Below, piece after piece: positions 21,888-39,922 of a stretch of DNA of 64,000 bases. The position numbers were made by a program, and so were the translations under genes. Within the stretch, counting starts at the first letter, position 1; the number at the start of each line of letters is the position of its first letter. This stretch comes from a virus: positions 9,959 to 73,958 of the IMG/VR virus record IMGVR_UViG_3300045988_175441. One strand, given 5' to 3'. The notes under the pieces are model-generated. The model did not search any database. It saw only the letters and a program-made list of their open reading frames with translations, and was not told where the DNA came from.

Positions 21888-22520
21888 ATGGCAAAGAAAA
21901 CAAAAGAACCGTTTGATCCAAGCGCTTGGTTGAATGAAGCGCCTGCAACCAAGGAAGAAAAGCGAGAGAAACGCAAGGCAGAGCGTGAAGAAAAGAAAAA
22001 AGAGGGCAACAAGAAAGCTACAATCCCTAAGAAGAAAAAAGAAAAAGAGAATGACAACAAATTTAATCTGAAATATGGTATCTTTGTAGGAGCTTGTGTT
22101 GTAGCATTGGCAGGTTCAGGAGCTTGGGCTTTTGTTTCTCATAATGGGAACGCTAAATACAATGCTGACCTGATTGCTACTGCTAAGTCAGAGGTTGAAA
22201 AAGCTAAAGAGGAAGCAGAGCAAGAGGAAGAAAAGAAATACAGCCTTACGAAAGAGGAGTATGAGAAGAACGTTGATACAATTACAAAGAGTATCAAGAC
22301 ACTTTCTAAGAAAGACAATGGCGACTTAACAGGTTACTTTACGTCTAACAACAAAATCTACAAGGTTATCACTTATGACCGTGAGACAGGGCAGATGTAC
22401 GTTGTAGAAACAGACGAAAAGAACAAAGACAAAGACGTTAATAGCAATGGTAAACCATTATCTCTAAACAAGGATTGGATCAACACGCTAGTTGTACGTC
22501 TTGAAGCGCAAAAAAATTGA
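21888..22520 (+). CDS. Bitopic membrane protein, T4SS-associated; paralogue of the C-terminus of 6017..7276
   Basis: Lys/Glu-rich N-terminus, TM GIFVGACVVALAGSGAWAFV, and a shared LTGYFT..NK.Y....YD..TG block. Confidence 0.7.
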   Translation: MAKKTKEPFDPSAWLNEAPATKEEKREKRKAEREEKKKEGNKKATIPKKKKEKENDNKFNLKYGIFVGACVVALAGSGAWAFVSHNGNAKYNADLIATAKSEVEKAKEEAEQEEEKKYSLTKEEYEKNVDTITKSIKTLSKKDNGDLTGYFTSNNKIYKVITYDRETGQMYVVETDEKNKDKDVNSNGKPLSLNKDWINTLVVRLEAQKN

Positions 22521-22537
22521 TAAGGAAGGTTGATTGA

Positions 22538-23143
22538 ATGATTGAGTATTTTAAAAATCTATCTAATCGTGCTAAAGTTATCTGGTCTCTTTCGACTGTA
22601 GGAGTGATTGCTGTTGGGGTAACAGCCTTTATCTGGTTATCTCCTAAACCAAGTGCAGGAACAGACTTTCAACTAAAGGAAAGTACAGGAGTAGTCACTA
22701 CTACTGAACCTTCCTCAACTACTGAAATCTCAGAGAAACCTGCTTCTTACTACAACGACACTCACGCAAGAGCAGTTGAGAAGTTAGAGAAGCCAACAGA
22801 GGAAATCTCAGGCGAAAAGAGAGAAAAAGTCAAGGCAGGCATTGAAAGAGCGATTGCAGGATTGAAGAAAAATCCTGAGAACGTGGGTAGTGTTCAAGGT
22901 GGTTATAGCCCTACTACAAACTATATGGTACAGGGAATGCACCAAGCTCTTGAAGCAGGGTACGAAGTGAAGATAGATACACTTACGACTACAAAAAGCA
23001 ACCATGAGCATATCTATCAATTTGCAGTTGATATGGTTAGAAAAAAGGATAATAATTCTGTAACAGTTACAGGAAACTACAGCGAAGAATTGAACCAAAT
23101 TCAATTTTCTATCCTTGTAGGAGATATTCAGATTCAAAACTAA
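22538..23143 (+). CDS. Membrane-anchored protein, T4SS-associated; paralogue of 2291..2851
   Basis: TM VIWSLSTVGVIAVGVTAFIWL, plus the shared blocks listed at 2291. Confidence 0.7.
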   Translation: MIEYFKNLSNRAKVIWSLSTVGVIAVGVTAFIWLSPKPSAGTDFQLKESTGVVTTTEPSSTTEISEKPASYYNDTHARAVEKLEKPTEEISGEKREKVKAGIERAIAGLKKNPENVGSVQGGYSPTTNYMVQGMHQALEAGYEVKIDTLTTTKSNHEHIYQFAVDMVRKKDNNSVTVTGNYSEELNQIQFSILVGDIQIQN

Positions 23144-23199: not shown

Positions 23200-25830
23200 A
23201 TGACAAAGAAACAAAACGTGAAAGTTTGTTACCACAAAGAGCGAACGAAAAAGTCAAGGTTTAGGAGCAAGTCTGCTCTAGTATTGGCTCTTTTTGTAGT
23301 AAATGCAGTCCATACGTCAGGAGTGATACCAGTTATTCGTGATGGCGTGATTGCTTATGCTGATGTTCACTACTCTTATTCTCCTGATGATGATTGTGGA
23401 GTGAACCAAGACGTAAAAGGTAAGAGCAAAAAAAACAACAAAGATAGCTCTACCTCTAATAGTCAGTCGTCAGATTCAATAGACGATACCGTTTGGACAA
23501 GAAAAGGTACGAAAGCCTATCAAAACGCCATAGACACGATCAACTTTTGGAAAGAGCAAGGTCTTTCAGGGGTTGAAATTGCAGGTATTATCGGAAATAT
23601 TGGTGGTGCTGAGAATACAACCTTTACCCTTGACCTGTCAGAAGAAGGTGGGGGAAGTGGTGGACTATATCGGTTTAACCCTTCTAGCAAATATACTAGT
23701 TGGAGTGGCTTTGATGGTAAATGGTCTGCTCAAAACCAAGGGGAGTTTGTCCTTTACTCAGAACCTCAATCTGTACTAGCGTATATTAACAAAAAGAACA
23801 CTAGTCCGTCTCAATCTGCTGAGGATTGGGCGAACCTATACGAACGACCAGACGCAGGAGCTTTGGCAAATAGCTTGCAAGCTCGTAAAGACGCTTCTGA
23901 AAAAGCCTACAAGGTCTTTGAACTAGATAAAATCGAAGGCGATTCTAAGAAGGTATCTACTTGGGGTGGCTCAAATGTTTCCCAAGATAAAAAGGTCAAA
24001 ATCTCGGCAGAAGATGGCAATAAAAAGGGAACTAAGATTGACCTTAAAGTTGCTATTAAGTGGTTTGAAGAAAGAGAAGGCAAGGTTACTTACAGTCAGG
24101 ACGCAGGTAGTAGAAAAGGTCCTCTGCAATATGACTGTTCTTCCTCAATCTACATGGCTTTAGTCGAAGGTGGAGCAGGTAAGACAGCAGGCGATTATCC
24201 AGTCTCTACAGAAACAGAACATGAGTGGCTTCTACAAAATGGCTTTACTAAAGTCTATGAAGGCAAGTGGGGAGACAAGGGAGACGTTAAAGAGGTCAAA
24301 AAAGGCGACATTATTATCTGGGGAACTAAAGGTTCTTCTGGTGGCGACTTAGGGCATACTATGATTATGTATGACAATGAGACTATTATCCATAGCTCGG
24401 CAGGTCATAACGGTATCGCTCGTGACACTTACTCTAAATACCGTGATGAAGCAACAGACCATCAGACAGTATATGTTTACCGTTACTCAGGTTCAACCAA
24501 CTTTAGCGAAGATGACGTTGAGAAGGTAGAAACAAAATGTAAACCTAAGTGTGCTTACAATGACAGTTCAGAACGTGTGAAAGGCACGAATAGCTCAACA
24601 GACAGCAGTACCTCTACTTCTGGTAGTAAAGATACAGCAACAATGTTGAATGAGTTTGCTAAAAAACATGAGCAAGCCTATGTTGAAAGTTGGCGTGTAG
24701 GTGGGTTCTTACCTTCTGCGTCTATCATTCAAACTATGATTGAGACTAGCTTCAATGAGAGCGTACCTTCATTCGGTCAGGCTCATAACATGGGTGGAGT
24801 TAAAACCTCTAAATTAGAGGACTTCTCAGAAACCATGAAGCTCTATGGTAAGGACGCTGTTGCCTTTTCAGGAGCAGGAACTACCGTTGGAGACAATACA
24901 GGTGGTACTTATACCTACTTCAAGAGTTTTGACGCAGGGATTGTAGGTAAAGCTGAGTTCATGGCACGTCAAACGCTCTATGACGGAGCGATTAACAACA
25001 CGGACGCAAAAGCAGTCTTTAAGGCTATTGCTGATGGTGGTTGGGCGACAGATTCAAGCTATCAAGTCTCACTAAATAAGATGTACGACCAGTACGGAGA
25101 ACAGCTCAAATGGTTAGATGAAAAAGCTATTGCTAAATATGGTAAGACACCATTTAAAAAAGGCTCTATTGCTGAAAGTAAAGATAAGGCAGTTGGGGCT
25201 AAGATGGGCGCTCATAGAGGTACAGCAGTTTGCGACACTAACAGCAGTTCTGGTGGTGGAGACGGTTGGCAAAAAGCAGGTGGTTCAACAAGCTATACTT
25301 TAAATCTGTGGTGGAAAAAAGATGACCTACCCCCTGAAATGCAACAATATGCTCTTGATCCAGAGAGTGTAGGATTGAAATGGCGTTCTAAAGTGGGTTG
25401 GGAAGGAGCTTCTGCTTATATTTCAAGTGGATATACCGACCAATGTACCACTCTAGCAAGTGCTTTGTTTGGGGCATTGTGGGAGAAAGACGGAAAAGCT
25501 ATGGGCGATTCTCACGGTATGACAGGTAACGGTGTTGAAATGGCTAAACAGGTTGCTTCTAAATTCGGTAAGAGTACAACCAGTACACCGACAAGTGGAG
25601 ATATTGTTTCTCTACAACCTAACCACGTTGCTATTGTCAGTCACGTTTTCGATAACGGAGATATTCTTCTAGTGGAGCAGAACGTTCCTAACTATTCAGG
25701 TAACGGAGATAGCTTCACTTGGAACTACTCTTATATCACAAAAGCTACCCAAAAAGCGAAGAACTACGAATTTTGGAATCCATCATCAGAAGGCTACAAA
25801 GTAACAAGCAAAGCTAAGTCAGTAGGCTAA
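23200..25830 (+). CDS. Multidomain peptidoglycan hydrolase (lysozyme-like + NlpC/P60 + glucosaminidase + CHAP)
   Basis: Four regions in order. (1) GIIGNIGGAENTTF..GGSGGLYRFNP. (2) LQYDCSSSIYMAL..GDIIIWG..GHTMIMYD..IHSS (Cys-His). (3) ASIIQTMIETSFNES..NMGGVK..GGWATDSSY (glucosaminidase-like). (4) YTDQCTTLASALF..GDIVSL..NHVAIVSHV..LVEQN (CHAP-like). Confidence 0.75.
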   Translation: MTKKQNVKVCYHKERTKKSRFRSKSALVLALFVVNAVHTSGVIPVIRDGVIAYADVHYSYSPDDDCGVNQDVKGKSKKNNKDSSTSNSQSSDSIDDTVWTRKGTKAYQNAIDTINFWKEQGLSGVEIAGIIGNIGGAENTTFTLDLSEEGGGSGGLYRFNPSSKYTSWSGFDGKWSAQNQGEFVLYSEPQSVLAYINKKNTSPSQSAEDWANLYERPDAGALANSLQARKDASEKAYKVFELDKIEGDSKKVSTWGGSNVSQDKKVKISAEDGNKKGTKIDLKVAIKWFEEREGKVTYSQDAGSRKGPLQYDCSSSIYMALVEGGAGKTAGDYPVSTETEHEWLLQNGFTKVYEGKWGDKGDVKEVKKGDIIIWGTKGSSGGDLGHTMIMYDNETIIHSSAGHNGIARDTYSKYRDEATDHQTVYVYRYSGSTNFSEDDVEKVETKCKPKCAYNDSSERVKGTNSSTDSSTSTSGSKDTATMLNEFAKKHEQAYVESWRVGGFLPSASIIQTMIETSFNESVPSFGQAHNMGGVKTSKLEDFSETMKLYGKDAVAFSGAGTTVGDNTGGTYTYFKSFDAGIVGKAEFMARQTLYDGAINNTDAKAVFKAIADGGWATDSSYQVSLNKMYDQYGEQLKWLDEKAIAKYGKTPFKKGSIAESKDKAVGAKMGAHRGTAVCDTNSSSGGGDGWQKAGGSTSYTLNLWWKKDDLPPEMQQYALDPESVGLKWRSKVGWEGASAYISSGYTDQCTTLASALFGALWEKDGKAMGDSHGMTGNGVEMAKQVASKFGKSTTSTPTSGDIVSLQPNHVAIVSHVFDNGDILLVEQNVPNYSGNGDSFTWNYSYITKATQKAKNYEFWNPSSEGYKVTSKAKSVG

Positions 25831-25834
25831 GAAA

Positions 25835-26600: not shown

Positions 26601-26840
26601 TTGGAACATAAACCAAAGGTTACGATAGCTCAAAGGTGGATTTTATCAGAGTTAGAAAAGCATAAAGAAATGACCTTAAAAGAGTTGATGAAAGTAACGG
26701 AGATTAAAGAGACAACTTTGAAAGTCTATCTTAGTCGCTTGATTCAACAGGACTTAATAGTATCTATCCGAATTAGTGGAGAAGAAACTAAATACACGGT
26801 CAAGAAAGGAAAGAAATCAGATGGGAAAAAAGAAAGTTAA
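26601..26840 (+). CDS. Winged-helix transcriptional regulator-like protein, 79 aa (TTG start)
   Basis: GAGGAGG lies 5 nt before the TTG. Contains MTLKELMKVTEIKETTLKVYLSRLIQQDLI. TGGTATAAT promoter at 26555-26563. Confidence 0.55.
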   Translation: MEHKPKVTIAQRWILSELEKHKEMTLKELMKVTEIKETTLKVYLSRLIQQDLIVSIRISGEETKYTVKKGKKSDGKKES

Positions 26841-27918
26841 AGAAAAGTACAAACAACTAAAAGCTAAAGAAAACACGATAGCTGAAATTGAAAAGGTAAG
26901 CGAGCAGGAAGAAACGAAGCATAATTTCTTATACAAGTGTCGCTCATTCTTAGGTCAGACGTTTAACTTAAAGACGAAGCGTGGCAAGATTCTTGCTTTT
27001 GGGCTGACAGCTTGGTTATCAATGGCAATAGGATTCGCTTTATCTAACTATGTGCAGACAGGGAACACGGTAGGGGGAACAGTCGCAACTTACAAAGGGG
27101 GCTATATCCGAGGACGGAAGCTGTACGAATACTACAAGAACTCCCTAGAAGGTTCAAACCTAGTTAAGACTACGCTTTTGTACCAGACTTTCGGTGCGCT
27201 TTATGGCGATAAAATCACAGATGAAGAAATTGAAACAGCACTACCGAACTACCGAAACGCAGGACTAAAGACTTTATTTGAAAAAGGAGACAGTACAGAG
27301 AGTATCAAAACTCTAGTACGTCAACAACTAGCCTTGCAGTATGGATTGAAAACCAATATTGATGTAACCCAAGAAGAAATGGCTGAACGTTGGGAAACCT
27401 TCCACCCTAAAATGAAAGTCCAGATGGTATTAGTGGCAGATGAAGCGCAAGCGAATGATATTGCTACACAGTTAGGTCAGGGAGTTAAGATTGACAATTT
27501 CCTTAAAATGGATCAATCAGGACTGAACGGACAAACAGCAACTATCAAGTCTAACACAGAGCAACTTTCTAGCGAGGAGCTAAAACAACTCCAAAGCACC
27601 AAAGAAGGGGGAGCTACAGTTATTGAAAAAGACAACGTAGCACCAGACGGTTCAATCGTTAAAACCTACTATGTGTTTAAGGTATTAGAAAACCCTGCAA
27701 AGGGCGAAAATATGGAAAGTTGGACTGATGAACTTAAAGAGCAGATTCAGGAAGATAAAGTCCGTATTGGTTTAGGTCAGAAACAAGCGTCCGAAGAAGA
27801 AGTTGCAAAGAATACTAAGGCAGTCAAAGACGCTATCAAGTCTGTATTTAAAGAGCAGGACGTAAGAGTAACTGACGACTACATGAAAAAAGCACTTGCT
27901 GATTATCTAGGAGAGTAA
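26821..27918 (+). CDS. PrsA/SurA-like foldase (membrane-anchored chaperone or PPIase-like)
   Basis: TM after a basic N-terminus. The layout YYKNSL..TLLYQTFGALYGDKITDEEIETAL..LVRQQLALQYGL..VTQEEMAERWETFHPKMKVQMVLV resembles PrsA N-terminal and parvulin-border regions. Confidence 0.5.
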   Translation: MGKKKVKEKYKQLKAKENTIAEIEKVSEQEETKHNFLYKCRSFLGQTFNLKTKRGKILAFGLTAWLSMAIGFALSNYVQTGNTVGGTVATYKGGYIRGRKLYEYYKNSLEGSNLVKTTLLYQTFGALYGDKITDEEIETALPNYRNAGLKTLFEKGDSTESIKTLVRQQLALQYGLKTNIDVTQEEMAERWETFHPKMKVQMVLVADEAQANDIATQLGQGVKIDNFLKMDQSGLNGQTATIKSNTEQLSSEELKQLQSTKEGGATVIEKDNVAPDGSIVKTYYVFKVLENPAKGENMESWTDELKEQIQEDKVRIGLGQKQASEEEVAKNTKAVKDAIKSVFKEQDVRVTDDYMKKALADYLGE

Positions 27919-27921: not shown

Positions 27922-28275
27922 ATGGGTATTTTTAAAAAAGTTAAAAAGAAAATTGACAATACGTTTGATGAAGATACATTACAGAATGACGTATCAAGTG
28001 GAGCGCTAGAAAAAGGCTCTATTCTTTGGGGATTGAGAGCTACAGTCATTGGTACAAAGAGTGTATTGAACGAGGTTGTCGGAAGGACAGTAACGGTTGC
28101 GAACAATGAACGAGATAAGATTATCAACCAACAAGAACCTCAACGACCTCAACCAGAAATTAAAAAGCAGGTTCAAGAGCCTGTAGCCCCTCAAAGCTCA
28201 GATATGTCAGAGTATGACGAATTTGAAGAATGGAAGAAATTTCAAGCTATGAAGCGAGGAAAGGGGAATGAATAA
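27922..28275 (+). CDS. Hypothetical protein, 117 aa
   Basis: ORF in the operon. No motif recognised. Confidence 0.55.
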   Translation: MGIFKKVKKKIDNTFDEDTLQNDVSSGALEKGSILWGLRATVIGTKSVLNEVVGRTVTVANNERDKIINQQEPQRPQPEIKKQVQEPVAPQSSDMSEYDEFEEWKKFQAMKRGKGNE

Positions 28276-29156
28276 TGGCAAACGAGGTACAAGAATACCA
28301 ACAAGTCCAAGAAAACGAATTTGACGTTATTGAAATCCCAAAGGGAGATTGGACTGGGGAAAGTCTAAAACATGGTTTGGTAAACTCGTATTTCTACTTT
28401 GATATTTTCAAAAACCTAACCAATGGTAAGCCTATTAAAATTTTGTGGGCTGGGTTCTCCTTGATGTTAGTCTTTGCGACAATTTTCATGGCAACTCTAG
28501 CCTTCCAATGGACTTCTACAGTCTCAGTTTTTAGTGGTATTATTTCTGCAATCCTCGTAAGCATAACGCTTCTTTGGTTGGCATGGTTGAATATCAAGCC
28601 TTCTAGCGATACAACTTTATTGATTGATAGTATCCGTACTTTCTTTTACTTGGTAAAATCAAAACCAAGCCTGAACAACCTACGTTTTAAAGCGCAGGTC
28701 AAGGGAAATCAGATTGTTTTTGATAACGGTAAGAGCTATGGAGAGGTTTATGTGGTAGAGGGTGTAGTCAACAAGTCCATGCTTTCAAGAGACTTAGTTG
28801 CTATCTACACAGACCTTGAAAACTTACTACCCAACTTGGGAGAAGTCACAATGATCCAATCAAGCCAGATTGAACGTGTTGAGTTTACTAGTTTGAAAGA
28901 ACACTATAGAGAAATCAGACAGAACCCTAACAGTACGAAGTTGCAGAAGAAGTTGGCTCAGATTAAGAACCGACGTGTAGTTGATGACTTAAAGAATGAG
29001 TTGACGCAGAAGGAAGTTGTATTCTTTGTAGCAAACAAGGAAGAAGAACTATCAAAGGGCAGACAGTTTTTGAGGTCTGCTTCTGAAAAAGGGGTTATCG
29101 CAAGCTATGCGCCTATCTCACAAAAGAACCTAGAAAGGATATTAGATAGACTATGA
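28275..29156 (+). CDS. T4SS-associated membrane protein, 293 aa
   Basis: Two TM helices (LMLVFATIFMATLAFQW and VFSGIISAILVSITLLWLAWL). Translationally coupled on both sides. Confidence 0.6.
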   Translation: MANEVQEYQQVQENEFDVIEIPKGDWTGESLKHGLVNSYFYFDIFKNLTNGKPIKILWAGFSLMLVFATIFMATLAFQWTSTVSVFSGIISAILVSITLLWLAWLNIKPSSDTTLLIDSIRTFFYLVKSKPSLNNLRFKAQVKGNQIVFDNGKSYGEVYVVEGVVNKSMLSRDLVAIYTDLENLLPNLGEVTMIQSSQIERVEFTSLKEHYREIRQNPNSTKLQKKLAQIKNRRVVDDLKNELTQKEVVFFVANKEEELSKGRQFLRSASEKGVIASYAPISQKNLERILDRL

Positions 29157-31081
29157 AATCTATTGTTAAAGAATATGCCCTAGACTATCTAATCAATGGG
29201 CGCTATAGAAAGTATTTGTATGTGTTTGCCCCTTACGGACGAGGACTACAAATGCAGGCAGAAGATATTATCAATCTCAAAGGCTTCCCTGTTATCTCAG
29301 GCTGTACGGTAACAACATGGAATAAGCTCCAACTCCTAAAACCAGAAGAATATCGTAAGGAAATGAAAGGTTTAGCCAATCTGGTTAAGGTCAACGACCA
29401 AGACTTGCCAGACGGTGGGCTTGCAGGAGATATTAAGTGGGCTACGAATCGTCACAGCGCCATGTATCTTGCTGAACAGTCTGACGACAAAATGTCAGGT
29501 GGCTTGTATGTTTGGGAAATCGTTGTTACAGCTCTTTCCAGAGAGAAGTTGGATCGCCAAATTGAAGTTATCCTAAACCGTTGGGGTGGGGTTGATAACT
29601 ATATCAGTAAGAAATACAACCCTATCCAATACTTTGAATTGGTTGATACAGTAGGAACTAACAAGTACAAGCGAGGAATTTTATTCAATCCTCTAATCGT
29701 TACTGAGAAAGTGAACACTACTACGCTAGAGAACTATGCGAAGTTGTGTTTCTTCCAACGAACTACGCTACAAGATGAATTAGGAGAAGAATTTGGATAT
29801 GATTTTCTAGCTCCTTCTCAGATTGGGGAAGATGGCAACTCTAAATATCCAAAAGTCCTAATTGACGCAAAGAACTACCTCAACAAACTAGGTATTGTAG
29901 CAATACCACGCTCATTTTCACGCTTTGATTATGTCTTTAAGGACGTTTATCAAGATGAAGCAGAGACTATTAAGAAACCTCAGTCACTAGCGAGCGTAAC
30001 AAGTCAGCAAGTGGCTAATCAATTCTTGATGGAAGGTAAGAAAGTAGTCCATATCGTCCTAAATGACTTTGACTACTTTAAATTAGAAACCCCTCATAAT
30101 CGAGACACTAAGCAGTTCCAGAATACGATTATCGAGGAAACGCAGATTATTGATGGCTCACGAATTAGTATCAATCCATTACAGCCTTTTGCGAAGAACA
30201 GAACGGAAGAAAAGGAAGAAGAAATCCCTGCTTATGGTCGCTCTAAGAAGAAATTTAATACCATTATCCAAACCTTGATTTACTACCAAGGCGAAGATAC
30301 AGGGATAGTTGATGAAGTCTTTGACGAGCTGATGGAAAATGAAGCGCTTTGGAACAGAGATAATGACGTGATGGTTGACCGTAGGAACTATCTGCAACAA
30401 CCTGCAAGTAAATATCCTGCTTTTGACCGTGCTATCACGCGCTTTGAGACCAAAGAAGCTAACCTACGCAGGGATATGAAGATTGATGAAGCAAAAGAAG
30501 TCGCTCAGATTAAGAGACGACTAGAGAGCTTCTTGACGAATAATAGGTCGCTGATTGGTTCTAAGACAACCCTTGAATTAGACGAAAGCAAGGTCAACTA
30601 CTACATACGACTAGACAAACTTGATACTCTACAGAAAAATATTCAGGTTATCAATCTAGTTGACTTTGTGACAGAGTTCTTAGGAGCAGGAGACCTGATG
30701 ATTATTCACGGTGCAGAGGTTTTAGATGTCCGAACTTATGAGTATCTAGCTGAACAGTTTGAGCGTACCTATGATAAGAAGGTGCGAGTGCTATTGAGTT
30801 ATGACGTTACGGATTCATTGAAACCAAGCACGAAGAACTCTTTAGGTTCATCTAACGTATTTACTCTTACTAAGCGCCTGTATGAAGAATTTAACACAGG
30901 GGTTGACTGGTCGTTCGTAGGTCGTATGAACAATTCAAGGAATTACGAGCAGTTAGTAAAGGCTGAACTCCCAACAACAACAAAGGTTGATATTGAATTT
31001 GAAGGGGGAGTAGGACGTGCCTTATTCAATCGTCCTGCAACAAGATCATTTTACTTGATAGGAGTTAAACCGATATGTTAA
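29153..31081 (+). CDS. Large soluble T4SS-cluster protein, 642 aa; possible degenerate VirB4-like protein (no P-loop seen)
   Basis: Occupies the position and roughly the size of Gram-positive VirB4 (TcpF/Orf16). I find no GxxxxGK[ST] motif anywhere in it. Confidence 0.35.
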   Translation: MKSIVKEYALDYLINGRYRKYLYVFAPYGRGLQMQAEDIINLKGFPVISGCTVTTWNKLQLLKPEEYRKEMKGLANLVKVNDQDLPDGGLAGDIKWATNRHSAMYLAEQSDDKMSGGLYVWEIVVTALSREKLDRQIEVILNRWGGVDNYISKKYNPIQYFELVDTVGTNKYKRGILFNPLIVTEKVNTTTLENYAKLCFFQRTTLQDELGEEFGYDFLAPSQIGEDGNSKYPKVLIDAKNYLNKLGIVAIPRSFSRFDYVFKDVYQDEAETIKKPQSLASVTSQQVANQFLMEGKKVVHIVLNDFDYFKLETPHNRDTKQFQNTIIEETQIIDGSRISINPLQPFAKNRTEEKEEEIPAYGRSKKKFNTIIQTLIYYQGEDTGIVDEVFDELMENEALWNRDNDVMVDRRNYLQQPASKYPAFDRAITRFETKEANLRRDMKIDEAKEVAQIKRRLESFLTNNRSLIGSKTTLELDESKVNYYIRLDKLDTLQKNIQVINLVDFVTEFLGAGDLMIIHGAEVLDVRTYEYLAEQFERTYDKKVRVLLSYDVTDSLKPSTKNSLGSSNVFTLTKRLYEEFNTGVDWSFVGRMNNSRNYEQLVKAELPTTTKVDIEFEGGVGRALFNRPATRSFYLIGVKPIC

Positions 31082-32070
31082 ATAATAATCTTAAAAGGCT
31101 ATCTCCTCATATCAGTAAAGCAATAAAAGGTGGCTTTGCCTTCCTGATGGTAGTCTTTACAACCTTCTTTATCGCTTATAGTGTTATTGAAGGGCGTAAG
31201 GCTCTAGGAAACTCACAAACACCGATAGGAGAGACGCTACAATTTGCACGTTCAGGAGCTAATATCATAGTCAAGAACTACTACACAGACAAGAATCAAG
31301 ATGTGTTGATTGCTACGCTTGAAGTAAAAGAAGGCAATAGCAAGTTACCAACTAAGGCAAGTGACTATTGGGTAGTCACTACCTCAGATATTGGTGGACG
31401 TAGCATACCTACTTACTTTGGGCGAATGAATACAGACGGAGACTTTTATATCATTATCCCTTATCCTAAACAGCAGACCTACACGGTTGCTATCTACAAC
31501 ACTACTACAAGTGGTGGGGATATAAGTTCTAGTGGAGACCAACTAACTATTGGTACAGGAACGAATAGTAAAATCGTATCAGATATTACAAGTGACCTAT
31601 TGAAGAACGTAAACAATCAACAGGCTCAGAAAGTAAAAGAGACTGATATTATCGCTTTGAACATGACCTTAAAATCTGCATTACAAGATGACGCTAAGTA
31701 TAAAATCACTACCCTTGATGTAGATAGTCTATTGTCGCAAGACGGAGACACAGTAGCCTTTGATTTTAGGAAGTTCTACACGCTTGCTTATCGTGACCTA
31801 GCTGTATCAGTCGCAAGGGATAAGGTCAACAGCTACACAGAGGAAATTAAAGCTCTCAATGATAAGTTGAAAGAGGTCAGAGAAACCCTAGACCGAAATC
31901 CGAATGATGAAGTCGCTATCAATCAACAAAACACGATCAATGATAGTATCGCAAGCGCTCAGGATAATCTTGAAAAAGCGAACCAAAACTTAACAGAGAT
32001 TAAGAAACGCTTTAACTATGACGAAAGTACCTTTAGTGACTATACAACGAAGATGTATTCATTGAATTAA
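31075..32070 (+). CDS. Membrane-anchored T4SS-cluster protein with C-terminal coiled coil
   Basis: TM GGFAFLMVVFTTFFIAYSVI, and a heptad-like C-terminus. Confidence 0.6.
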   Translation: MLNNNLKRLSPHISKAIKGGFAFLMVVFTTFFIAYSVIEGRKALGNSQTPIGETLQFARSGANIIVKNYYTDKNQDVLIATLEVKEGNSKLPTKASDYWVVTTSDIGGRSIPTYFGRMNTDGDFYIIIPYPKQQTYTVAIYNTTTSGGDISSSGDQLTIGTGTNSKIVSDITSDLLKNVNNQQAQKVKETDIIALNMTLKSALQDDAKYKITTLDVDSLLSQDGDTVAFDFRKFYTLAYRDLAVSVARDKVNSYTEEIKALNDKLKEVRETLDRNPNDEVAINQQNTINDSIASAQDNLEKANQNLTEIKKRFNYDESTFSDYTTKMYSLN

Positions 32071-32091
32071 AAAAGAAAGGAGAGCTTAATT

Positions 32092-34326
32092 TTGGTAACT
32101 GTAGGAAAAAAGAAAAAGCACCACAAACCAAAAGGAAAGTCCAAAGAAATAGACGAAAAGTTTTCTAAAGCAGTTCATGTGAATAGTTCAGGACGACAAC
32201 AACTAGTGTTCAACTACGATACCAAAGTTGTTTCTTGGAACAACAAGGTAAGGGAATACAAGGAAGAACTTGAAAAGGGTTCAGGAACAGAAAGTAGCTT
32301 GTTTCGTAATGAGCAATTTAAGAAGCTGTTAGATGACTTTAACAATGAGTACAAGGATAGTTTGATTATTCTCCCCCCCTATGATGGAAATTTTAGGGGG
32401 CGTGAGAATGAATTGAAAGCAATCAACGATACAATAGCTAATACCCTAGAGCCTACACGAATAATTCTTGGAAATGCAGGTACAGGGAAAACAACTATTG
32501 TCCGTGAAGCGACAAGACGGATCAATTCAGGCGAAATGACAAACAAGATGGGTTATAATCTTGTAGTTGTGGAGCTATCCTTACTAGCTTTGCTAGATGA
32601 AGGGGATAGCAAGTTCACAGCAACACTAGCTGAAATGATACCTAAAATCCTTGGACTAGAGCAGAAGGCAAGAGAGTTCCTAAATGACGAAAACATAAAA
32701 TTTGTTCTCTTTATTGATGAAGCACACACTCTTACTAAGGCAGTCCAGAAGGAAAATGGAGAGAGTAATGGTGCTGACGTTTTGAAACGTCATATCAAGC
32801 CAGAAATTGGCTCTTTGATTCTCATTGGCGCTACAACGCTTGAAGAATATCGCTATTACATTGAAACCAACCAACCTTTCAAGGAGCGCTTCTCAGAGAA
32901 AACGATTCTACAGGACTTTTCAAAAGAAGAAGTAGAAGAAATCGCAGTCGCTCATTGGGAATACTTGATGAAGCTCAGAGGAATAACTAATTCAACGCTA
33001 TCCAGAGAGCTGATACGCTTTATTATCCGTGTAAATGCTAGAGAAGATTTAATGAGTGCTGAACCACGGAAAACCAAGCAATTTCTACAGAGTTTGGACG
33101 CTCACTCCTTTAACGTAGGAGAGACACCTGACTACCAAATGGTCGTAGAAGTCTTTAGGTCGGCTAAGAATATCACAGCAGAGGTTGTTCCTGATATTGA
33201 GAGTGCAACCAAAGCGATAGATGAACGTATTAAAGGTCAGTATGCTTCTAAGTATCTATTGAAACGTGCGTTAGTATCACGATACGGTAATCTATCCAAG
33301 AGTGATAACAGCCCCTTCTTATCGTTACTAGAACTTGGACCAACAGGTGTAGGTAAGACAGAAACAGCTAAAGTCCTCAACGAGTATATCTTTGGTGGAC
33401 TTGGTAAAATCGTTCTTCTGAACTGTTCTAACTATGCCTATATCGAAGGTGGGGTTGAAAAGTTCCTAAAAGAAGCAGGGGAACAGGTGGGAGATAGTGA
33501 GTTTGCTATCCTTGTCATTGACGAGGTGGAAAAAGCTATCCCTTCCAAAGATAACAAGGTTATCAGTTCTTTGCGTGATGTGTTCCTAGACCTCACAGGA
33601 GAAGGTATCTTAAAGTATGCTCCACGCTTTGGTGGAGTGGATAGAAAGACCTCTTTAGCAAAAGCTATCGTTATCTTTACCTCAAATGCAGGTTATGAAA
33701 TCTTTGAAGGGAATGACAAGTTCTCAGATAACACGATAACTAAAAATACTCCTGAAAATGAAATCAGACGGATCATGTTCTCTATCGTAAATGAGTTAGA
33801 GAGCCATCTACACGAAAAGTACAACTTTGCCAGAGAGTTCTTTGGACGTTTAGACGCTACACTACCGTTTACGTCTTTGACCGAGGCAGACGCTATCGAG
33901 TTGACCGAATTGTTCTTGGATAAGTATATCCAGAACGCAAAAGAGCAAGAGAACATAGAAATCAAAATTGATGATAAAATAGAGTATAAGAGTACACTTG
34001 TTCGTGGCTTAGAAGATGGAGAGGTAAGGGAGTTTTATCCACTTGCTGTTACTCTATCCTCTTACATAGCGAATATGCGTGATAGCTCTAAGGGTGGAGC
34101 AAGGCAAGTTCAAAAAGTCTTTAACAACTACCTAAATGTGTTGATTGGGGATATTAAGTTGAAACGTAAAGGTTTTAAAGAACCTAAGACAATCAAGATT
34201 TATCCACGCTTGCTTGAACCAGACACAGGAAATGTTGTTCAGGATAAAGAAGAACAGAGAATGGTTCGCTATGCTCTAAAGCCTAATAGAATGGAGGATA
34301 TAGAGATATTCTATGAGGAGATTTAA
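32092..34326 (+). CDS. Clp/Hsp100-like double AAA+ ATPase (no N-domain or M-domain evident)
   Basis: D1: LGNAGTGKTTIV, VLFIDEAHTL, and IGATTLEEYRYYIETNQPFKERF (compare Clp IGATTxxEYRKxIEKDxALxRRF). D2: LGPTGVGKTETAKVL, ILVIDEVEKA, IVIFTSNAG. TTG start 9 nt after AAGGAG. Confidence 0.75.
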   Translation: MVTVGKKKKHHKPKGKSKEIDEKFSKAVHVNSSGRQQLVFNYDTKVVSWNNKVREYKEELEKGSGTESSLFRNEQFKKLLDDFNNEYKDSLIILPPYDGNFRGRENELKAINDTIANTLEPTRIILGNAGTGKTTIVREATRRINSGEMTNKMGYNLVVVELSLLALLDEGDSKFTATLAEMIPKILGLEQKAREFLNDENIKFVLFIDEAHTLTKAVQKENGESNGADVLKRHIKPEIGSLILIGATTLEEYRYYIETNQPFKERFSEKTILQDFSKEEVEEIAVAHWEYLMKLRGITNSTLSRELIRFIIRVNAREDLMSAEPRKTKQFLQSLDAHSFNVGETPDYQMVVEVFRSAKNITAEVVPDIESATKAIDERIKGQYASKYLLKRALVSRYGNLSKSDNSPFLSLLELGPTGVGKTETAKVLNEYIFGGLGKIVLLNCSNYAYIEGGVEKFLKEAGEQVGDSEFAILVIDEVEKAIPSKDNKVISSLRDVFLDLTGEGILKYAPRFGGVDRKTSLAKAIVIFTSNAGYEIFEGNDKFSDNTITKNTPENEIRRIMFSIVNELESHLHEKYNFAREFFGRLDATLPFTSLTEADAIELTELFLDKYIQNAKEQENIEIKIDDKIEYKSTLVRGLEDGEVREFYPLAVTLSSYIANMRDSSKGGARQVQKVFNNYLNVLIGDIKLKRKGFKEPKTIKIYPRLLEPDTGNVVQDKEEQRMVRYALKPNRMEDIEIFYEEI

Positions 34327-37300
34327 GAAAAAACTAGGTAACATACTATTGTTGTCTTGCTTACTGTTTTCAACAGGGGTAACAACAATGGTATCTACCT
34401 CTCATGTGGTTTATGCAGATGATGACGGCAAGGCAAAAGTGCAACCTGCTGAAAAGGTTAAAGAGGTTGAAATAAAAGCCAACCCTGAGCAAAAGAGAGG
34501 GGCTATTGCTTATGCTATGTATCAAGATATAGGTGTTGGTGTTACTCAGAGGGTTAAATTTCAACCATATTTTAATATTGCAGGTGGTTCTCCTGTCCTA
34601 GTTGGGATCAATTCAGCGAACCAAGCCTACAGTCCTGCAAAGATAGGCGATGAAGGTGGTGGTAGTGACGCAAAAATGAGTTATTTTAGTGCTTCCAAAA
34701 TTGGAAGTAGTAAAAATACAAATGCCCTAATCGCCCAAGATGAAGCCTATATGAAAACCTTTTACAAGGCAGAAGATGGGTACTGGTATGAGGAAAAATC
34801 AGGAGATAAGTTACTTGCCTACCGACCAGTAAAAGTAAGTTCTCATAATTTGGAAACAGGGAATCCTTGGAAGTTAGAAGATTTTTCTAATGATGTGGAC
34901 GCTTTCCAGAACGCTCAAAAAGGAACTATGTTTGTGTTTGTTCCAGTAGCAGATATTAAAACAAAGAACGCTACAGCAGGGGTATTCTTTGATAAAAGTG
35001 GTAGCTATTCTGTACGCTCTAAATTAGTTGAGAAGAAAGAGAAGAAGCAAAGTCAAGCTGACCGTAAGAAAACTCAACAGGACAAGCAGAAGGCTCTAGC
35101 AGAGGAATTTGCGTCATCATACCCTAACGTGGGGGATAGACCTTCCACAAACACGCTCCTAGCGTACATTATGTATACTAAAGGGGGTTCAGGAGACGAC
35201 GCTATCAAGGATATTGACCTATCCTATGGAGAAATCAAGTATTATCCTGCTCCTTCAAGCAACGTACTAGTGAATGATGACGCTTATAAGTCAAACGAAG
35301 CAGTCAGAAAGTACGCAGGAAACGGAGAGACTAAAGGGGCTTATATCCCTAACTCAATCAACATGGCAGGCAGTCCACAGCCAGAAGGTAAGACACTTGC
35401 GAATATGCTTAAAGTGTACGGTGGTTGGGGCTTTATCTCAGTTAGTGCGACAGCAACAGATACAAACTCAACAACAAGTAACAACCTTGGTTCAATCCTT
35501 GGAGATATTTGGGATAATAACAACGGTTGGTTTGGGGTAATCGGAAATGTCATCTTGACTATCCTTGCTCCTGCTCTTTGGATAATAGCTATGGTATTTG
35601 ACGTGTTCAACTCAGTAGCTAATGCCTTCCTTGGATTTGTAACAGGATTGGGAAATATCTTTGGCGATCCAATCGGAATGATTTTCTACAAGGCAAAAGG
35701 AGAATCAGGTTCGGATAACTGGTTAGTGAACTTGGCAGTCAATTTGAAAGACTACTTCTTCACGAATGAGTTTATCGCAGGTATGGCAGAAACCATTAAC
35801 GCTTACCGTAATTGGATATTCTTTGTCTGGTTGCTAATTGGGTTATTGTCACTCATTTATCGAATGACTTTCCGTAAAGGTAAATACGGACAAGCTATGA
35901 CTAAGTGGTTCTTTAGAGTATCTGCACCAGTCGTTATGATTATCCTAGCAGGTATTGTAACAGGTTCTACAGTCGCAAACGGAGCAGGCTATAATCAACA
36001 GCAAGACGCAAGCGATAAAGAGATTGATATGCTCAAATATGCGGTAGCATTTAACTTGGACTTGCGAGAAGCCTATAACTTTGCAGGTAAAGATGGAGCG
36101 CCTAAATATCAAGAACTGATTGATAAGGACGATATAGATATTTCTACTTGGAATATGTCATCTAAGCAGATTAAAGACCTCAATCAGAGAATCGAAGCTA
36201 AACTTGGTTCAGAATTATCTGCTGACCTAAGCCAACATAACACGCAAGGGGCTACGTTTGATGTCAATACCTATCTAAGTGGTATTGCACAGGCAAGCAA
36301 ACTAGCAAATGCTCAACGTACAGGAAACTCAGTCGCTTCTAATGACCTTCCTGCTGATTTTGTTAAGAATGGCTACATGAGTTACAAAATCGAAGGAGAG
36401 AACAAAGAAAAGACTAAGTTCACTATCTATGGTGCGCCAATGCTTAAAATAAGTGGTGGCTCACAACAATCTGCTGACTTTGTGCCAGTTGGTTATCAAT
36501 TTGACGGTTATCCTTATATCTTCACTCAAAATGACGCAAGTATTAAGCGTCAAGAAGAAGAAAGCGAAAGCGCAAGTGATGAAAACAAGTCCACAGAGTA
36601 CGCTTATCTTTCAGGTACGTCAAACGCAAAAGATCCAAATTATAAGAAACAGTTTTATATTGGATTCTACGGTGTCTATTGGGAAGCAACGCCTGTTTCT
36701 CTATCACAACCTTGGACTTACCTCTATGGTGCTAACACAAACAATAACGCAATCACAGAACACCCTTCAACCTATATGTACGGTGCAGGGAAATCTACTC
36801 AGATTGCAAACCTTAGAAAACAACAAGGTTCTAACCTAGAAGATGATGATAAAGCTCCAGAATCTGTAACAACTCCTCAAATGAGCGAAGATGGGAAAGG
36901 CTACAAGTCAGAAGGACGCAAGCATTATTTCTATTGGAAATATATCAACGCCTACAACCTTGCATTGATAAATAAGTATATGGGTACGAAGTCCGATATG
37001 GACGTATCAGACCTACAATTATCAAACCAATCAGTCGTGTTCCTTCTTCAATCACAGCTCAAAGAGACAGAGTTGCGCTATTATGCAAGCAACCTTAACC
37101 ACTCAGATTCAGGTAAAGGTAAATCAAGCTCTAAGACACCATTTATCTATAACCGATTCATCACTCCTCAGAAGTCAGATGATATTGCTTCTGTTAAGAT
37201 TAGTGGGTTCTTTATCACACTTGCCTACACAATTATCCTGATGACTTACGTTAAGACACTTGCTACAATCAGTATTAGTGATTACATTGTCGGACGTTGG

Positions 37301-38482
37301 AAGGCTATGTTTGCAGGTATTAAGGGTTCATGGTCGAACGCTGTTTACTACTCAATCTTAACTTGGTTCTGGGGATTGATCGTAGAGTTCATACCTTCAA
37401 GTTTCCAGTTGGGAGTAAGTATTATTACAGAAACAGCAAAAGCCTTGAATGATTCTCCACTCGGAATGGCAGGGAGCTTTGGTGTCGGCTTTGGAGTTCT
37501 ATGTGTAGCGTGGGTTCTTACTTATCCGTTCGTGCAAGTAGCAGATAAGAAAATCTCATTGATTGTCGGGCTTATCTATATGTTTGATGTAATACGTCTA
37601 GCAATCAAAGGTTGGTTGTTCGGACGCTACGGTTTAGACAGCATTATCTACCAAAACTCAGGTGGCTTTGGAGCAGGTGCTTTGCTAGGACTTGCGACAG
37701 GTGGCTTGCTAGGAGCTAAACAAGACCTTCAACAACGCTTGGGTAATATCAAAAATAGCTTTAGTGGTGGAGATAATGTCACAGGAGATAGTCCTACTAC
37801 TGATGATGATGGAGACGTTGTACCAAACAGTCCAACTAGTCCAACAGGTGGCGCAGATGGCGAAAATCCAAATGAGCCAGACGGTCAAGCAGTCGGTGGA
37901 GATAACCGTAAAGAGCTTACAGATGACGAGAAGAAACGCAATCCGTTCCGTAATGAAGAAGGCAAACCTAATGGAACACCTAAACCAAAACCAAAACCTA
38001 AGAATAATGGTAAATTTGGTAAGTTGATGTCGGTTGCAGGAAAAGGAGCAGGTGTTTACTATCAAGTCGCTAGAATTGCTACGACAGCTACTATGTCGGC
38101 TATCGGTATGAATAACCTTGCTAACAAGACGAATAATGCGTTCAACACAATAGGACGTGGTATAAGAAATCCTCAAAGCCCTGTTAGAAAAGCAGTAGGA
38201 CAAGGAGCAAGCAAGTTCAAAGACTTTGTAGATAAACGGAGAGCAAACAAACCGAATCCAACAGGAAACGGTAGTAAGATACCTACGTCTGCTGACAAAC
38301 CTAACAGTCCACAACGTGAAGGTAAGATGAAGCCTACAATCGTCAGTCAAGAACGTTCTGCTCAAACGTCCGTTATAACTGACAATTCTTCTTCTAACAC
38401 TCCAAAAGTCACTCGTAAAGAGGGCATGAAACCAGTTAAAAAGCCTGTACGCTACCCTAAGAAAAGGAAAAAGAGAAAGTAA
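34313..38482 (+). CDS. Giant polytopic membrane protein (VirB6/TcpH/Orf15-position channel component candidate)
   Basis: Signal or TM at the N-terminus, a roughly 380-aa extracytoplasmic region, at least two clusters of TM helices, and a low-complexity basic C-tail. 1389 aa. Confidence 0.6.
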   Translation: MRRFKKKLGNILLLSCLLFSTGVTTMVSTSHVVYADDDGKAKVQPAEKVKEVEIKANPEQKRGAIAYAMYQDIGVGVTQRVKFQPYFNIAGGSPVLVGINSANQAYSPAKIGDEGGGSDAKMSYFSASKIGSSKNTNALIAQDEAYMKTFYKAEDGYWYEEKSGDKLLAYRPVKVSSHNLETGNPWKLEDFSNDVDAFQNAQKGTMFVFVPVADIKTKNATAGVFFDKSGSYSVRSKLVEKKEKKQSQADRKKTQQDKQKALAEEFASSYPNVGDRPSTNTLLAYIMYTKGGSGDDAIKDIDLSYGEIKYYPAPSSNVLVNDDAYKSNEAVRKYAGNGETKGAYIPNSINMAGSPQPEGKTLANMLKVYGGWGFISVSATATDTNSTTSNNLGSILGDIWDNNNGWFGVIGNVILTILAPALWIIAMVFDVFNSVANAFLGFVTGLGNIFGDPIGMIFYKAKGESGSDNWLVNLAVNLKDYFFTNEFIAGMAETINAYRNWIFFVWLLIGLLSLIYRMTFRKGKYGQAMTKWFFRVSAPVVMIILAGIVTGSTVANGAGYNQQQDASDKEIDMLKYAVAFNLDLREAYNFAGKDGAPKYQELIDKDDIDISTWNMSSKQIKDLNQRIEAKLGSELSADLSQHNTQGATFDVNTYLSGIAQASKLANAQRTGNSVASNDLPADFVKNGYMSYKIEGENKEKTKFTIYGAPMLKISGGSQQSADFVPVGYQFDGYPYIFTQNDASIKRQEEESESASDENKSTEYAYLSGTSNAKDPNYKKQFYIGFYGVYWEATPVSLSQPWTYLYGANTNNNAITEHPSTYMYGAGKSTQIANLRKQQGSNLEDDDKAPESVTTPQMSEDGKGYKSEGRKHYFYWKYINAYNLALINKYMGTKSDMDVSDLQLSNQSVVFLLQSQLKETELRYYASNLNHSDSGKGKSSSKTPFIYNRFITPQKSDDIASVKISGFFITLAYTIILMTYVKTLATISISDYIVGRWKAMFAGIKGSWSNAVYYSILTWFWGLIVEFIPSSFQLGVSIITETAKALNDSPLGMAGSFGVGFGVLCVAWVLTYPFVQVADKKISLIVGLIYMFDVIRLAIKGWLFGRYGLDSIIYQNSGGFGAGALLGLATGGLLGAKQDLQQRLGNIKNSFSGGDNVTGDSPTTDDDGDVVPNSPTSPTGGADGENPNEPDGQAVGGDNRKELTDDEKKRNPFRNEEGKPNGTPKPKPKPKNNGKFGKLMSVAGKGAGVYYQVARIATTATMSAIGMNNLANKTNNAFNTIGRGIRNPQSPVRKAVGQGASKFKDFVDKRRANKPNPTGNGSKIPTSADKPNSPQREGKMKPTIVSQERSAQTSVITDNSSSNTPKVTRKEGMKPVKKPVRYPKKRKKRK

Positions 38483-38552: not shown

Positions 38553-38831
38553 ATGTTTACAAAACTACAACTATTGGCTACATTTGATCCAAGTTTGAAA
38601 AATCAACTGAACAACATTAAGAACAAAACACAAGTTGTCGAAGCAGGAAAAGAATCTCAAAAAGATTTGGTTGGCTTGACACAATGGGGCTTGTTTGCAA
38701 TTATCCTTATTGCAGTCTTTATGGGCTTCCATTATTCAAGAAAGCATGATTGGAAAAAGGCAGTTTTCTCCTTTGGTACAGCAATTCTAGCAGGTATCTT
38801 TGGTTGGCTTATCCTTCCTAGCTTTGTCTAA
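38553..38831 (+). CDS. Small membrane protein, 92 aa
   Basis: Two C-terminal TM helices (WGLFAIILIAVFMGF and FSFGTAILAGIFGWLILP). Confidence 0.6.
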   Translation: MFTKLQLLATFDPSLKNQLNNIKNKTQVVEAGKESQKDLVGLTQWGLFAIILIAVFMGFHYSRKHDWKKAVFSFGTAILAGIFGWLILPSFV

Positions 38832-39127: not shown

Positions 39128-39922
39128 ATGAAGAAAACAATCGTAACTTTGGCTTGCTCAGTAGTGTTGCTTTCAGTAGCAAACACTACCACGACTTTCG
39201 CTGATGAAGTCATCAGTCCAGACGCAGTAGCAACAGCGACAACTCAACCTACGGACACTAACGTTCCAAGCGCTGACGCAGTTGATACAGGTAACGCAGG
39301 AAACACAGGTACAGAAACACCTGCTGTTCCAGAAGTACCAGTTGTTCCAATCGCAGATGAAAAACCAGTTGAAACACCTGCTGTAACGGAAGCACCTGCA
39401 ACTACGGAAACTCCTGCTACAACAGAAACACCAGTTGTTCCAGAAGTTCCATCAACTACAGAAACGCCTTCTACAACTACAGAGCCTTCAACAGAAGCTC
39501 CTGCTGTACCAGAAGTGCCTGCTACAACAGAAACACCTTCTACAGCAACAGACAAGGCAGATGACAAGAAACCTGCTGATGACAAAAAACTTGCTGATAA
39601 CAAGAAGGACAATACCAACTTGCCTATCGTTGATCCAACTACAACAGACGCAAAACCAGTTGAAACTGACAAGGGAACAGTATTAAGCACAGATAACGGA
39701 AAGGTTATCGTTAAAAATACTGAAACAGGGGAAGAACAAACTTTTGCCCCAGAGGAACTTGGTGGACAAGTCGAAAAAGACGGTACAGTTACCGTTAAAG
39801 AAAAAGACGGTAAATTGACACGCCTTCCAAACACAGGTTTAGAAGAAAGTGCGTCAATGCTTATCGCAGGACTAACTACTTTGTTCTCAGGCGTTGGACT
39901 TTTGAAACGCAAAAAGGACTAA
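39128..39922 (+). CDS. LPxTG cell-wall-anchored surface protein with T/E/P-rich repeats
   Basis: Signal peptide, TETPATTETP-type repeats, then LPNTG, a hydrophobic segment and KRKKD. Confidence 0.85.
   Translation: MKKTIVTLACSVVLLSVANTTTTFADEVISPDAVATATTQPTDTNVPSADAVDTGNAGNTGTETPAVPEVPVVPIADEKPVETPAVTEAPATTETPATTETPVVPEVPSTTETPSTTTEPSTEAPAVPEVPATTETPSTATDKADDKKPADDKKLADNKKDNTNLPIVDPTTTDAKPVETDKGTVLSTDNGKVIVKNTETGEEQTFAPEELGGQVEKDGTVTVKEKDGKLTRLPNTGLEESASMLIAGLTTLFSGVGLLKRKKD

Follow-up and report, generated by a model that had tools for sequence, protein, structure and literature searches.

The plus strand of a 64,000-nt stretch of IMG/VR virus record IMGVR_UViG_3300045988_175441 (positions 9,959 to 73,958 of that record; hereafter the window) carries at 21.9-39.9 kb a gene cluster that we read, with a probability of roughly 55%, as the envelope-spanning (mating-pair-formation) part of a divergent Gram-positive type IV secretion system (T4SS) or conjugation system, in which a scaffold VirB4 would be combined with a recruited Clp-like ATPase. 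A VirB4 homologue, an FtsK-type coupling ATPase and a cell-wall hydrolase all lie on one element, along with a 2-TM (transmembrane) protein, bitopic proteins, a large polytopic protein and an LPXTG adhesin, and it is this usual Gram-positive T4SS gene inventory that leads us to regard the cluster as the channel module of such a system. The same system type appears to be common to the linear pELF plasmids of Enterococcus faecium, a linear episome of Streptococcus salivarius and plasmids of Staphylococcaceae. T4SSs as such are a known kind of machinery; what is new is this widespread variant, which includes clinically important pELF plasmids and in which an apparently dead VirB4 is accompanied by a giant membrane protein and a Clp-like ATPase. 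In the literature, we found neither a VirB4 family without a P-loop nor a Gram-positive conjugation system with a Clp-type ATPase described before. The open reading frames (ORFs) were found where an earlier first-pass annotation of this DNA, made from the sequence alone, had placed them.

The first of the two central genes (29153..31081, + strand) encodes a protein of 642 aa in which the first-pass annotation had found no GxxxxGK[ST] motif. The absence is real: neither the pattern [AG]xxxxGK[ST] nor a looser scan for GK[ST] returned any match. The protein also had no match in Pfam or NCBIfam (E<=0.01), PHROG or PADLOC. An exhaustive profile search nevertheless revealed a large family, with ~185 clusters at 50% identity, and a repeated search using the alignment as the query added no new sequences. 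The exact 642-aa protein is present on human oral metagenome contigs. Among the 150 family members listed, Walker A is absent from 146, and in the other four the pattern occurs at non-equivalent positions.

These data raise the question of whether the protein is a VirB4 at all, since the annotation had left open that it might be either a highly degenerate or an unrelated component. An AlphaFold model built on an 89-sequence alignment reached a pLDDT of 86.3 and a pTM of 0.81 (a 7-sequence alignment gave an unusable model with a pLDDT of 45). When this model was compared with the PDB using Foldseek, the top eight matches were all VirB4. The C-terminal domain of Thermoanaerobacter pseudethanolicus VirB4 (4ag5) was matched with E=2.6e-12 and a target-normalized TM score (TMt) of 0.71-0.73, and full-length R388 TrwK/VirB4 (8rtd, 7o43) was matched over 654-690 aligned columns with a query-normalized score (TMq) of 0.48-0.52. 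Thus, the two-domain VirB4 fold, with an N-terminal domain and a RecA-like C-terminal domain, is present in the model. At the sequence level, the only protein matched by the family profile among PDB sequences was again VirB4 4ag5 (E=1.7e-4), with SINPLQPF (N341 invariant) aligned to INPLQ and QVIN (Q498, N501) aligned to AQYFN; a 7-sequence profile returned only noise. The N-terminal domain was also aligned by hhalign with a PrgJ and TcpF profile (E=5e-5) across the L.D..G...G motif that precedes Walker A of these proteins. For the C-terminal domain, the corresponding alignment fell short of significance (E=0.067) and did not bring the P-loop region into register. The 642-aa protein is therefore a VirB4 homologue in both domains. 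Fold and VirB4-specific profile signals, weak as the latter are, speak for the degenerate component and against the unrelated one, and no intact nucleotide site that would make it a normal VirB4 came to light in the profile and structure searches. A PrgJ and TcpF HMM had no match in the window, and no canonical VirB4 was found elsewhere in it.

Another important question is what has become of the nucleotide site. At the Walker A position, the core strand 298-302 (VHIVL) is followed by NDFDYF, giving HIVLNDFDYF at 300-309. At the Walker B position lies DLMIIHGAE (514-522), where strand 515-519 ends in H519-G520 and not in Asp-Glu; PrgJ carries its Walker B, LYFDE, at the matching distance. Counted from N304, N341 lies at +37 and H519 at +215, and the PrgJ counterparts at ~50 and ~210. 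The replacing residues are strongly conserved: H300 and D514 in at least 90% and H519 and G520 in 98-100% of the 89 aligned sequences, and N304 in 94% of a 64-sequence alignment, while K367, T472, Q498, N501 and R627 are each conserved in at least 90%. Family-wide, the near-invariant motifs H-x-V-L-N and D-xxx-I-H-G take the positions of Walker A and Walker B. Such near-invariance suggests that the old nucleotide site was rebuilt and kept under selection rather than having decayed at random. We predict that the protein is a pseudo-ATPase or scaffold that no longer hydrolyses ATP. In one distant lineage (L078-L083, 25% identity), the VirB4-like ORF is ~923 aa long, with ~280 additional aa at the N-terminus, possibly through fusion with the 2-TM protein encoded upstream.

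The second central gene (32092..34326, + strand) encodes a 744-aa protein for which two Clp-like AAA+ modules had been reported, and both exist. GNAGTGKT begins at residue 127 and GPTGVGKT at residue 416, and the further motifs quoted for the modules (FIDEAH, IGATTLEEYRYYIE...ERF, IDEVEKA and FTSNAG) were all found. The Walker A lysines and Walker B glutamates are K133 and E210 in D1 and K422 and E478 in D2, and the two lysines correspond to K61 and K342 of the pELF2 protein. Pfam AAA (59 bits) and AAA_2 (44.5 bits) both scored over their cut-offs. In NCBIfam, only partial matches to ClpV, ClpB, ClpA, ClpG and ClpK were obtained, with scores 8-12 times under the curated Clp cut-offs; the best was ClpV1, with 107.9 bits against a cut-off of 884.95. 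The sequence search of the PDB aligned residues 101-274 with NBD1 and 402-629 with NBD2 of HSP101, ClpB and ClpC, the best match being PfHSP101 (5.8e-26). There was no Clp_N or ClpB_D2-small match, in agreement with the reported lack of an N-domain and of a ClpB middle domain. D1 and D2 are separated by ~125 residues, which leaves no ClpB-type middle domain (M-domain), and the PDB alignments skip that domain. The N-terminal 100 residues are basic and variable and are missing from some lineages.

To characterize the family, homologues from ten divergent lineages, from 70% down to 26% identity, were compared. Walker A and B are conserved in both modules (LF[IV]DE.H in D1 and DE.EK[AG] in D2), as are ATT..EY...RF in D1 and sensor 1 (T[ST]N), the arginine finger and sensor 2 (GGAR) in D2. 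The same tandem AAA+ arrangement, with D1 GATT..EY..RF, sensor-1 TSN, the arginine finger and sensor-2 GAR, characterizes the Class I Hsp100/Clp proteins ClpB, ClpV/TssH, ClpA, ClpC and HSP101. Judging by these motifs, the 744-aa protein is a tandem AAA+ relative of the Clp/Hsp100 type and very probably an active ATPase. It differs from Class I proteins in lacking Clp_N, the M-domain, the IGF/L loop and the aromatic G[YF]VG loop. No ClpP-binding IGF/L loop follows sensor 1 in its sequence, and no G[YF]VG pore loop was seen in D2 of any homologue aligned; the distance between Walker A and Walker B of D2 is 54-55 residues, compared with 66 in HSP101, a shortening of this segment by 11-12 residues. 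At the pore-loop position of D1, the lineage of the window has F and distant members have L. With the D2 loop deleted and the D1 aromatic position occupied by F or L, the description "unfoldase-like" given in the annotation is doubtful, and the protein does not look like a typical threading unfoldase.

The Clp-like gene starts with TTG at 32092, preceded by a good ribosome-binding site (AAAGGAG, 9 nt upstream). It had been described as translationally coupled to the following gene, which encodes a 1389-aa polytopic membrane protein (34313..38482, + strand) with a signal peptide, two clusters of ~3 TM segments and a Lys/Pro-rich tail. If ATG 34313 is used, the two genes do overlap, by 14 nt including the Clp-like stop, and this start gives the membrane protein a proper signal peptide. 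Public gene callers place the start 75 nt downstream (34388), yielding 1364 aa and losing the signal peptide. The spacing of the two genes is likewise tight or overlapping in pELF, S. salivarius and Mammaliicoccus plasmids.

Is this combination of genes peculiar to the window, or does it characterize a broader group of elements? Megablast of the 28-40 kb region against PLSDB and INPHARED returned no near-identical DNA. At the protein level, tblastn searches of PLSDB with the 642-aa and the 744-aa protein converged on one set of plasmids, comprising pELF-type linear plasmids of E. faecium, the linear episome pIKMIN-B502 of S. salivarius, and plasmids of Mammaliicoccus and Staphylococcus. With the pELF2 proteins as queries, 120 PLSDB records carried the VirB4-like gene and 135 carried the AAA+ gene, with parallel taxon lists, both of which include Macrococcus plasmids. 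The annotated maps of carriers have the same parts in common: one part encodes a 350-aa protein, an AAA ATPase and a protein of 1144-1257 aa, the other proteins of 290 and 640-656 aa together with one annotated as "phage tail tip lysozyme" and one of the FtsK/SpoIIIE type. In pELF2, the Clp-like gene (WP_010730985.1, 31075-33024), the giant-membrane gene (WP_002347432.1, 1213 aa, 33027-36668) and the VirB4-like gene (WP_002320766.1, 656 aa, 41029-42999) lie at 30-43 kb. The pELF2 VirB4-like protein belongs to the family at full length (hmmsearch 2.9e-189), carries HIVLN and DIVMIHG and has no P-loop. Weak tblastn matches of the VirB4-like protein also occurred in Streptomyces, Gordonia and Rhodococcus plasmids, which might represent canonical VirB4 proteins bridging to the family or further P-loop-less members.

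Scans of metagenomes with an 11-sequence alignment yielded 75 loci, in which the VirB4-like gene was 95% to 24% identical to the query, and a scan of GTDB genomes yielded 2 loci. In the 75 metagenome loci and 4 plasmids surveyed for gene order, the triad consisting of a homologue of the 331-aa protein (see below), the Clp-like gene and the giant membrane gene was found in this order in all identity classes for which the flanks were long enough, the exceptions being short or end-cut contigs (L004, L005, L070 and L071). The position of the Clp-like gene between its two neighbours is kept from 95% down to 22% identity, and an ORF of 1110-1474 aa lies directly 3' of it in ten divergent lineages. 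Directly 5' of it, a homologue of the 331-aa gene is found in most lineages, including pELF2 (WP_002321771.1) and Mammaliicoccus pNW26-2; pIKMIN-B502 is an exception, in which this homologue adjoins the VirB4-like gene. The Clp-like gene is thus present in related clusters across the whole family, and a motor that replaces or complements VirB4, as the annotation had proposed, would be consistent with a synteny this strict and with a P-loop lost throughout the family. The Clp-like gene of pIKMIN-B502 (L001, 26661-28869) is broken in two by a pair of stop codons, which end a 124-aa ORF with the D1 Walker A (GEGKT) just before an ORF of 605 aa annotated as "AAA family ATPase"; either the gene is a pseudogene or the sequence contains an error.

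The remaining genes of the cluster are all on the + strand, in one long run of co-oriented genes at 19.7-40 kb. At its head, two bitopic membrane proteins of 210 and 201 aa (21888..23143), with one TM segment each and no Pfam family match, are accompanied by homologues in related loci and in pIKMIN-B502; they are candidate channel or VirB8-like parts. They are followed by a membrane-anchored, multi-domain peptidoglycan hydrolase of 876 aa (23200..25830; Pfam Phage_lysozyme2, Amidase_5, Glucosaminidase and CHAP, N-terminal TM segment), for which a role like that of VirB1, PrgK or TraG may be proposed by analogy. The next main gene encodes a PrsA-like membrane-anchored foldase related to parvulin-type peptidyl-prolyl isomerases (26776..27918, TM segment at 72-90; NCBIfam PRK04405 E=5e-25, under the cut-off, and weak Pfam Rotamase_2), which is kept 5' of the VirB4-like gene down to ~26% identity. 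The immediate upstream neighbour of the VirB4-like gene, conserved in relatives, encodes a 293-aa protein with a 2-TM hairpin at 59-77 and 85-103 (28275..29156). Its stop and the start of the VirB4-like gene share 4 nt, which together with its topology would place it in the VirB3 position. Between the two central genes lies the 331-aa protein (31075..32070), bitopic with a TM segment at 16-34 and a C-terminal coiled coil. Neither the 293-aa, the 331-aa nor the 1389-aa protein had a match in Pfam, NCBIfam, PHROG or PADLOC, and hhalign of the 1389-aa protein against TcpH and PrgH was empty; by position and topology, the latter may correspond to VirB6. A 92-aa protein with two TM segments (38553..38831), whose position is kept in close relatives, and an LPXTG cell-wall-anchored surface protein, a probable adhesin (39128..39922; Pfam Gram_pos_anchor), complete the cluster.

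A consensus scan of the + strand detected terminator-like hairpins at 25833-25855 (after the hydrolase), at 26452 (after a 129-aa gene) and at 39957-39990 (after the LPXTG gene). Between 26.5 and 39.9 kb it detected no site with more than three G-C pairs and a single weak intragenic match at 32798-32812. The lack of any stronger site in this interval suggests that the PrsA-like gene through the LPXTG gene form one transcription unit.

In its outline, the cluster resembles known systems. A VirB4-fold protein likewise follows a small 2-TM protein in pCF10 Prg/Pcf, pIP501 Tra, pCW3 Tcp and Tn916; a membrane-anchored hydrolase with Phage_lysozyme2 and CHAP domains is likewise part of Gram-positive T4SSs, pCF10 PrgK bearing the same "phage tail tip lysozyme" annotation; and FtsK-type coupling ATPases (TcpA and TcpB of pCW3) and LPXTG surface proteins are shared as well. 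Unlike in these systems, the VirB4 described here has no Walker A or B and escapes VirB4 HMMs, and the cluster has in addition a Clp-like AAA+ protein, a protein of 1100-1470 aa at the VirB6 position and a PrsA-like foldase. A relaxase, by contrast, was not found: no relaxase family matched among the 38 window ORFs scanned against Pfam.

Where, then, is the energy for DNA transfer? The first-pass annotation had seen no P-loop between 21888 and 39922 other than those of the Clp-like protein. This stands save for AIAKYGKT in the cell-wall hydrolase, which we take for a chance match, given its place in the stretch that separates Glucosaminidase from CHAP. Flanking this interval, and outside it, are two ATPases of the FtsK/SpoIIIE type whose P-loops are intact. 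The first (11242..13872, + strand) is a coupling or DNA-pump ATPase of 876 aa with ~3 N-terminal TM segments (Pfam FtsK_SpoIIIE E=2.6e-44, GTTGSGKS at 445). In tblastn searches, pELF2 TraC (aa 15-402) matched 11299-12420 with 25% identity (2.6e-19) and pELF2 TraD (aa 45-350) matched 12490-13407 with 36% identity (4.9e-58); as judged from these alignments, the protein is a fusion of a TraC homologue in its N-terminal half with a TraD homologue in its ATPase half. A physical interaction between TraC and TraD was predicted with AlphaFold3 in the pELF2 study (PMC13492992), and the natural fusion supports it. The gene is followed by a homologue of orf5 of the pELF2 tra operon (13906..14577, + strand; tblastn 34% identity, E=1.4e-38). 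The second ATPase (49194..50723, + strand; 509 aa, one TM segment, Pfam FtsK_SpoIIIE E=4e-14, GGVGSGKS at 283) is 28% identical to pELF2 TraD and lies near a DNA/RNA non-specific endonuclease homologous to pELF2 orf1 (51100..51897, + strand; Pfam Endonuclea_NS_2, tblastn 32%, E=1e-25). Thus, of the pELF2 tra genes, traC and traD (as a fusion), orf5 and the endonuclease gene orf1 have counterparts in the window, while tblastn detected no match to the rhomboid-like TraG in it.

Taken together, these components allow a mechanism to be proposed. The VirB4 homologue, encoded after the VirB3-like 2-TM protein, would no longer hydrolyse ATP but would serve as a scaffold beneath the channel on its cytoplasmic side, and the TraC-TraD fusion would pump DNA. 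A Clp-like hexamer would dock on the giant membrane protein, the 331-aa partner or both, an association suggested by the invariant gene order and the frequent stop/start overlap, and would supply the ATP-driven work of assembly, gating or remodelling that normally comes from VirB4. The missing D2 pore loop makes remodelling or gating of a membrane complex likelier than processive threading of a substrate. A role of the Clp-like protein in transfer is what we infer from this arrangement. Dedicated hexameric ATPases tied to membrane secretion machineries are known from other systems: ClpV in the type VI secretion system, EccA in the type VII secretion system, HSP101, which is the unfoldase of the Plasmodium PTEX membrane translocon, and VirB11 in T4SSs, the last from a different ATPase family. 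The likeness is one of functional analogy only, and we know of none of these proteins in a Firmicutes T4SS.

Several observations weigh against the proposed T4SS. Beyond the missing relaxase, the VirB6, VirB3 and VirB8 assignments are positional and topological only; in plasmids of pELF type and of Mammaliicoccus, the cluster is divided into two sub-modules 8-10 kb apart; an active or binding site of another kind could be built from the near-invariant polar residues that occupy the former nucleotide site; and the atypical pore loops make the mode of action of the Clp-like protein unreadable from ClpB or ClpV. Moreover, the only genetic study, that of pELF2, examined a different operon: traC, traD and traG were experimentally essential for conjugation, and a minimal Streptomyces-like FtsK-based system moving dsDNA end first was proposed (PMC13492992, Kurushima et al. 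2026). No VirB4 homologue is described in that paper, whose text contains none of the words Clp, AAA, lysozyme or peptidoglycan; in the original description of pELF1, ftsK is the sole transfer-related gene listed (PMC6863802). The pELF plasmids, which are self-transmissible (PMC6863802, PMC13492992), are themselves without a relaxase (PMC13492992).

On these grounds, the cluster could instead be a surface or cell-wall module that exports, folds or anchors the LPXTG and giant membrane proteins, or that serves wall remodelling or cell-cell contact, while DNA transfer needs only the minimal TraC/TraD/TraG system. The essentiality of these three pELF2 genes and the minimal system proposed for them, the loss of ATPase motifs from the VirB4 homologue, the failure to find a relaxase, and the presence of an extracellular foldase and an LPXTG protein in one unit would all fit. 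We nevertheless consider this unlikely: FtsK-type ATPases, a hydrolase of the PrgK type and a VirB4 fold encoded after a 2-TM protein are what a Gram-positive T4SS normally comprises, TraC/TraD homologues accompany the cluster in distant elements, and the pELF2 study left the VirB4-like and Clp-like cluster outside its genetics. It is less probable still that the VirB4-like protein remains an NTPase or nucleotide binder through a remodelled H300/N304/K367/D514/H519 site, with the Clp-like protein as a third ATPase (a VirB11 analogue) or a substrate chaperone and not a replacement of VirB4. The Walker-replacing residues do show no drift over 89 diverse sequences, and the accompanying K367, T472, Q498, N501 and R627 are just as constrained; however, strand 298-302 does not end in a glycine-rich loop with Lys-Ser/Thr, and His-Gly stands in place of the acidic pair of Walker B. 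We know of no P-loop-fold NTPase that works without these three elements.

The Clp-like gene might also be a plasmid stress disaggregase of the ClpL, ClpK or ClpG kind, a passenger unrelated to transfer. Partial ClpG and ClpK similarity in NCBIfam and the occurrence of Listeria, Acinetobacter and Escherichia coli plasmids with Clp-type genes among the weaker tblastn matches point in this direction. Against it stand the absence of an N-domain, an M-domain and a D2 pore loop, scores far under every curated Clp cut-off, and a place between the 331-aa and giant membrane genes, often with stop/start overlap, that is retained over the entire identity range, so that we regard a passenger as very unlikely. 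That the 642-aa protein is a HerA-like part of an anti-phage defence system is hardly credible: HerA complexes from defence systems did appear among the Foldseek matches, but with an rmsd of 13-17 A and ranked below VirB4, PADLOC was empty for the protein and the sequence-level matches were to VirB4 only. A defence-system identity was also rejected for lack of anything specific from PADLOC. The divergent T4SS with a scaffold VirB4 is therefore the reading that we favour.

Other features of the window can be listed briefly. Its G+C content is ~38%. Upstream of the cluster, a Rep3/DnaB_2 replication initiator is encoded at 19751..21100 (+ strand; Pfam). On the minus strand, 15801-19159 holds three tandem genes of 362, 366 and 371 aa with no Pfam or PHROG match, at least the last two being paralogues (43% identity, E=1e-93), and 174-8567 holds ~13 co-oriented genes with no Pfam or PHROG match among those tested and no phage structural genes. 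Downstream of the cluster (40219-41974 and 53208-54692), we found an HU-like DNA-binding protein, a weak SprT-like protein, a GIY-YIG endonuclease, and a ResIII/SNF2-like helicase that shows PbeA-like and Dnd-restriction-like similarity. A phage identity of the element was rejected, the flanking unknown genes being without PHROG matches; the S. salivarius relative has been published as a "phage-like episome".

Plasmid mobility-typing tools depend on recognising conserved transfer proteins. Since the family escapes VirB4 models, MOB-suite typed 101 of the 120 VirB4-like carriers as non-mobilizable and 3 as conjugative, although pELF plasmids conjugate; standard mobility typing is blind to this system, and, if our reading is true, new HMMs could reveal hidden conjugative elements of Firmicutes. 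VirB4 has been regarded as the one universal T4SS protein (PMC4027160). More tentatively, and with the odds rather against it, a class of Firmicute conjugation systems that includes the vanA-spreading pELF plasmids may have a dead scaffold VirB4 and be energised instead by a Clp/Hsp100 motor on the giant VirB6-position protein. If true, this would be the first T4SS whose "only ubiquitous" ATPase is no ATPase and the first with Clp-family motor power, in which an essential secretion ATPase was turned into a scaffold and its work passed to an unrelated AAA+ motor. Beyond the FtsK-only model, pELF2 encodes a VirB4-fold protein at full length along with the Clp-like ATPase and its giant membrane neighbour; should transfer depend on them, the model of how vancomycin-resistance linear plasmids move would change, and the Clp-like ATPase would become a candidate target to block that transfer.

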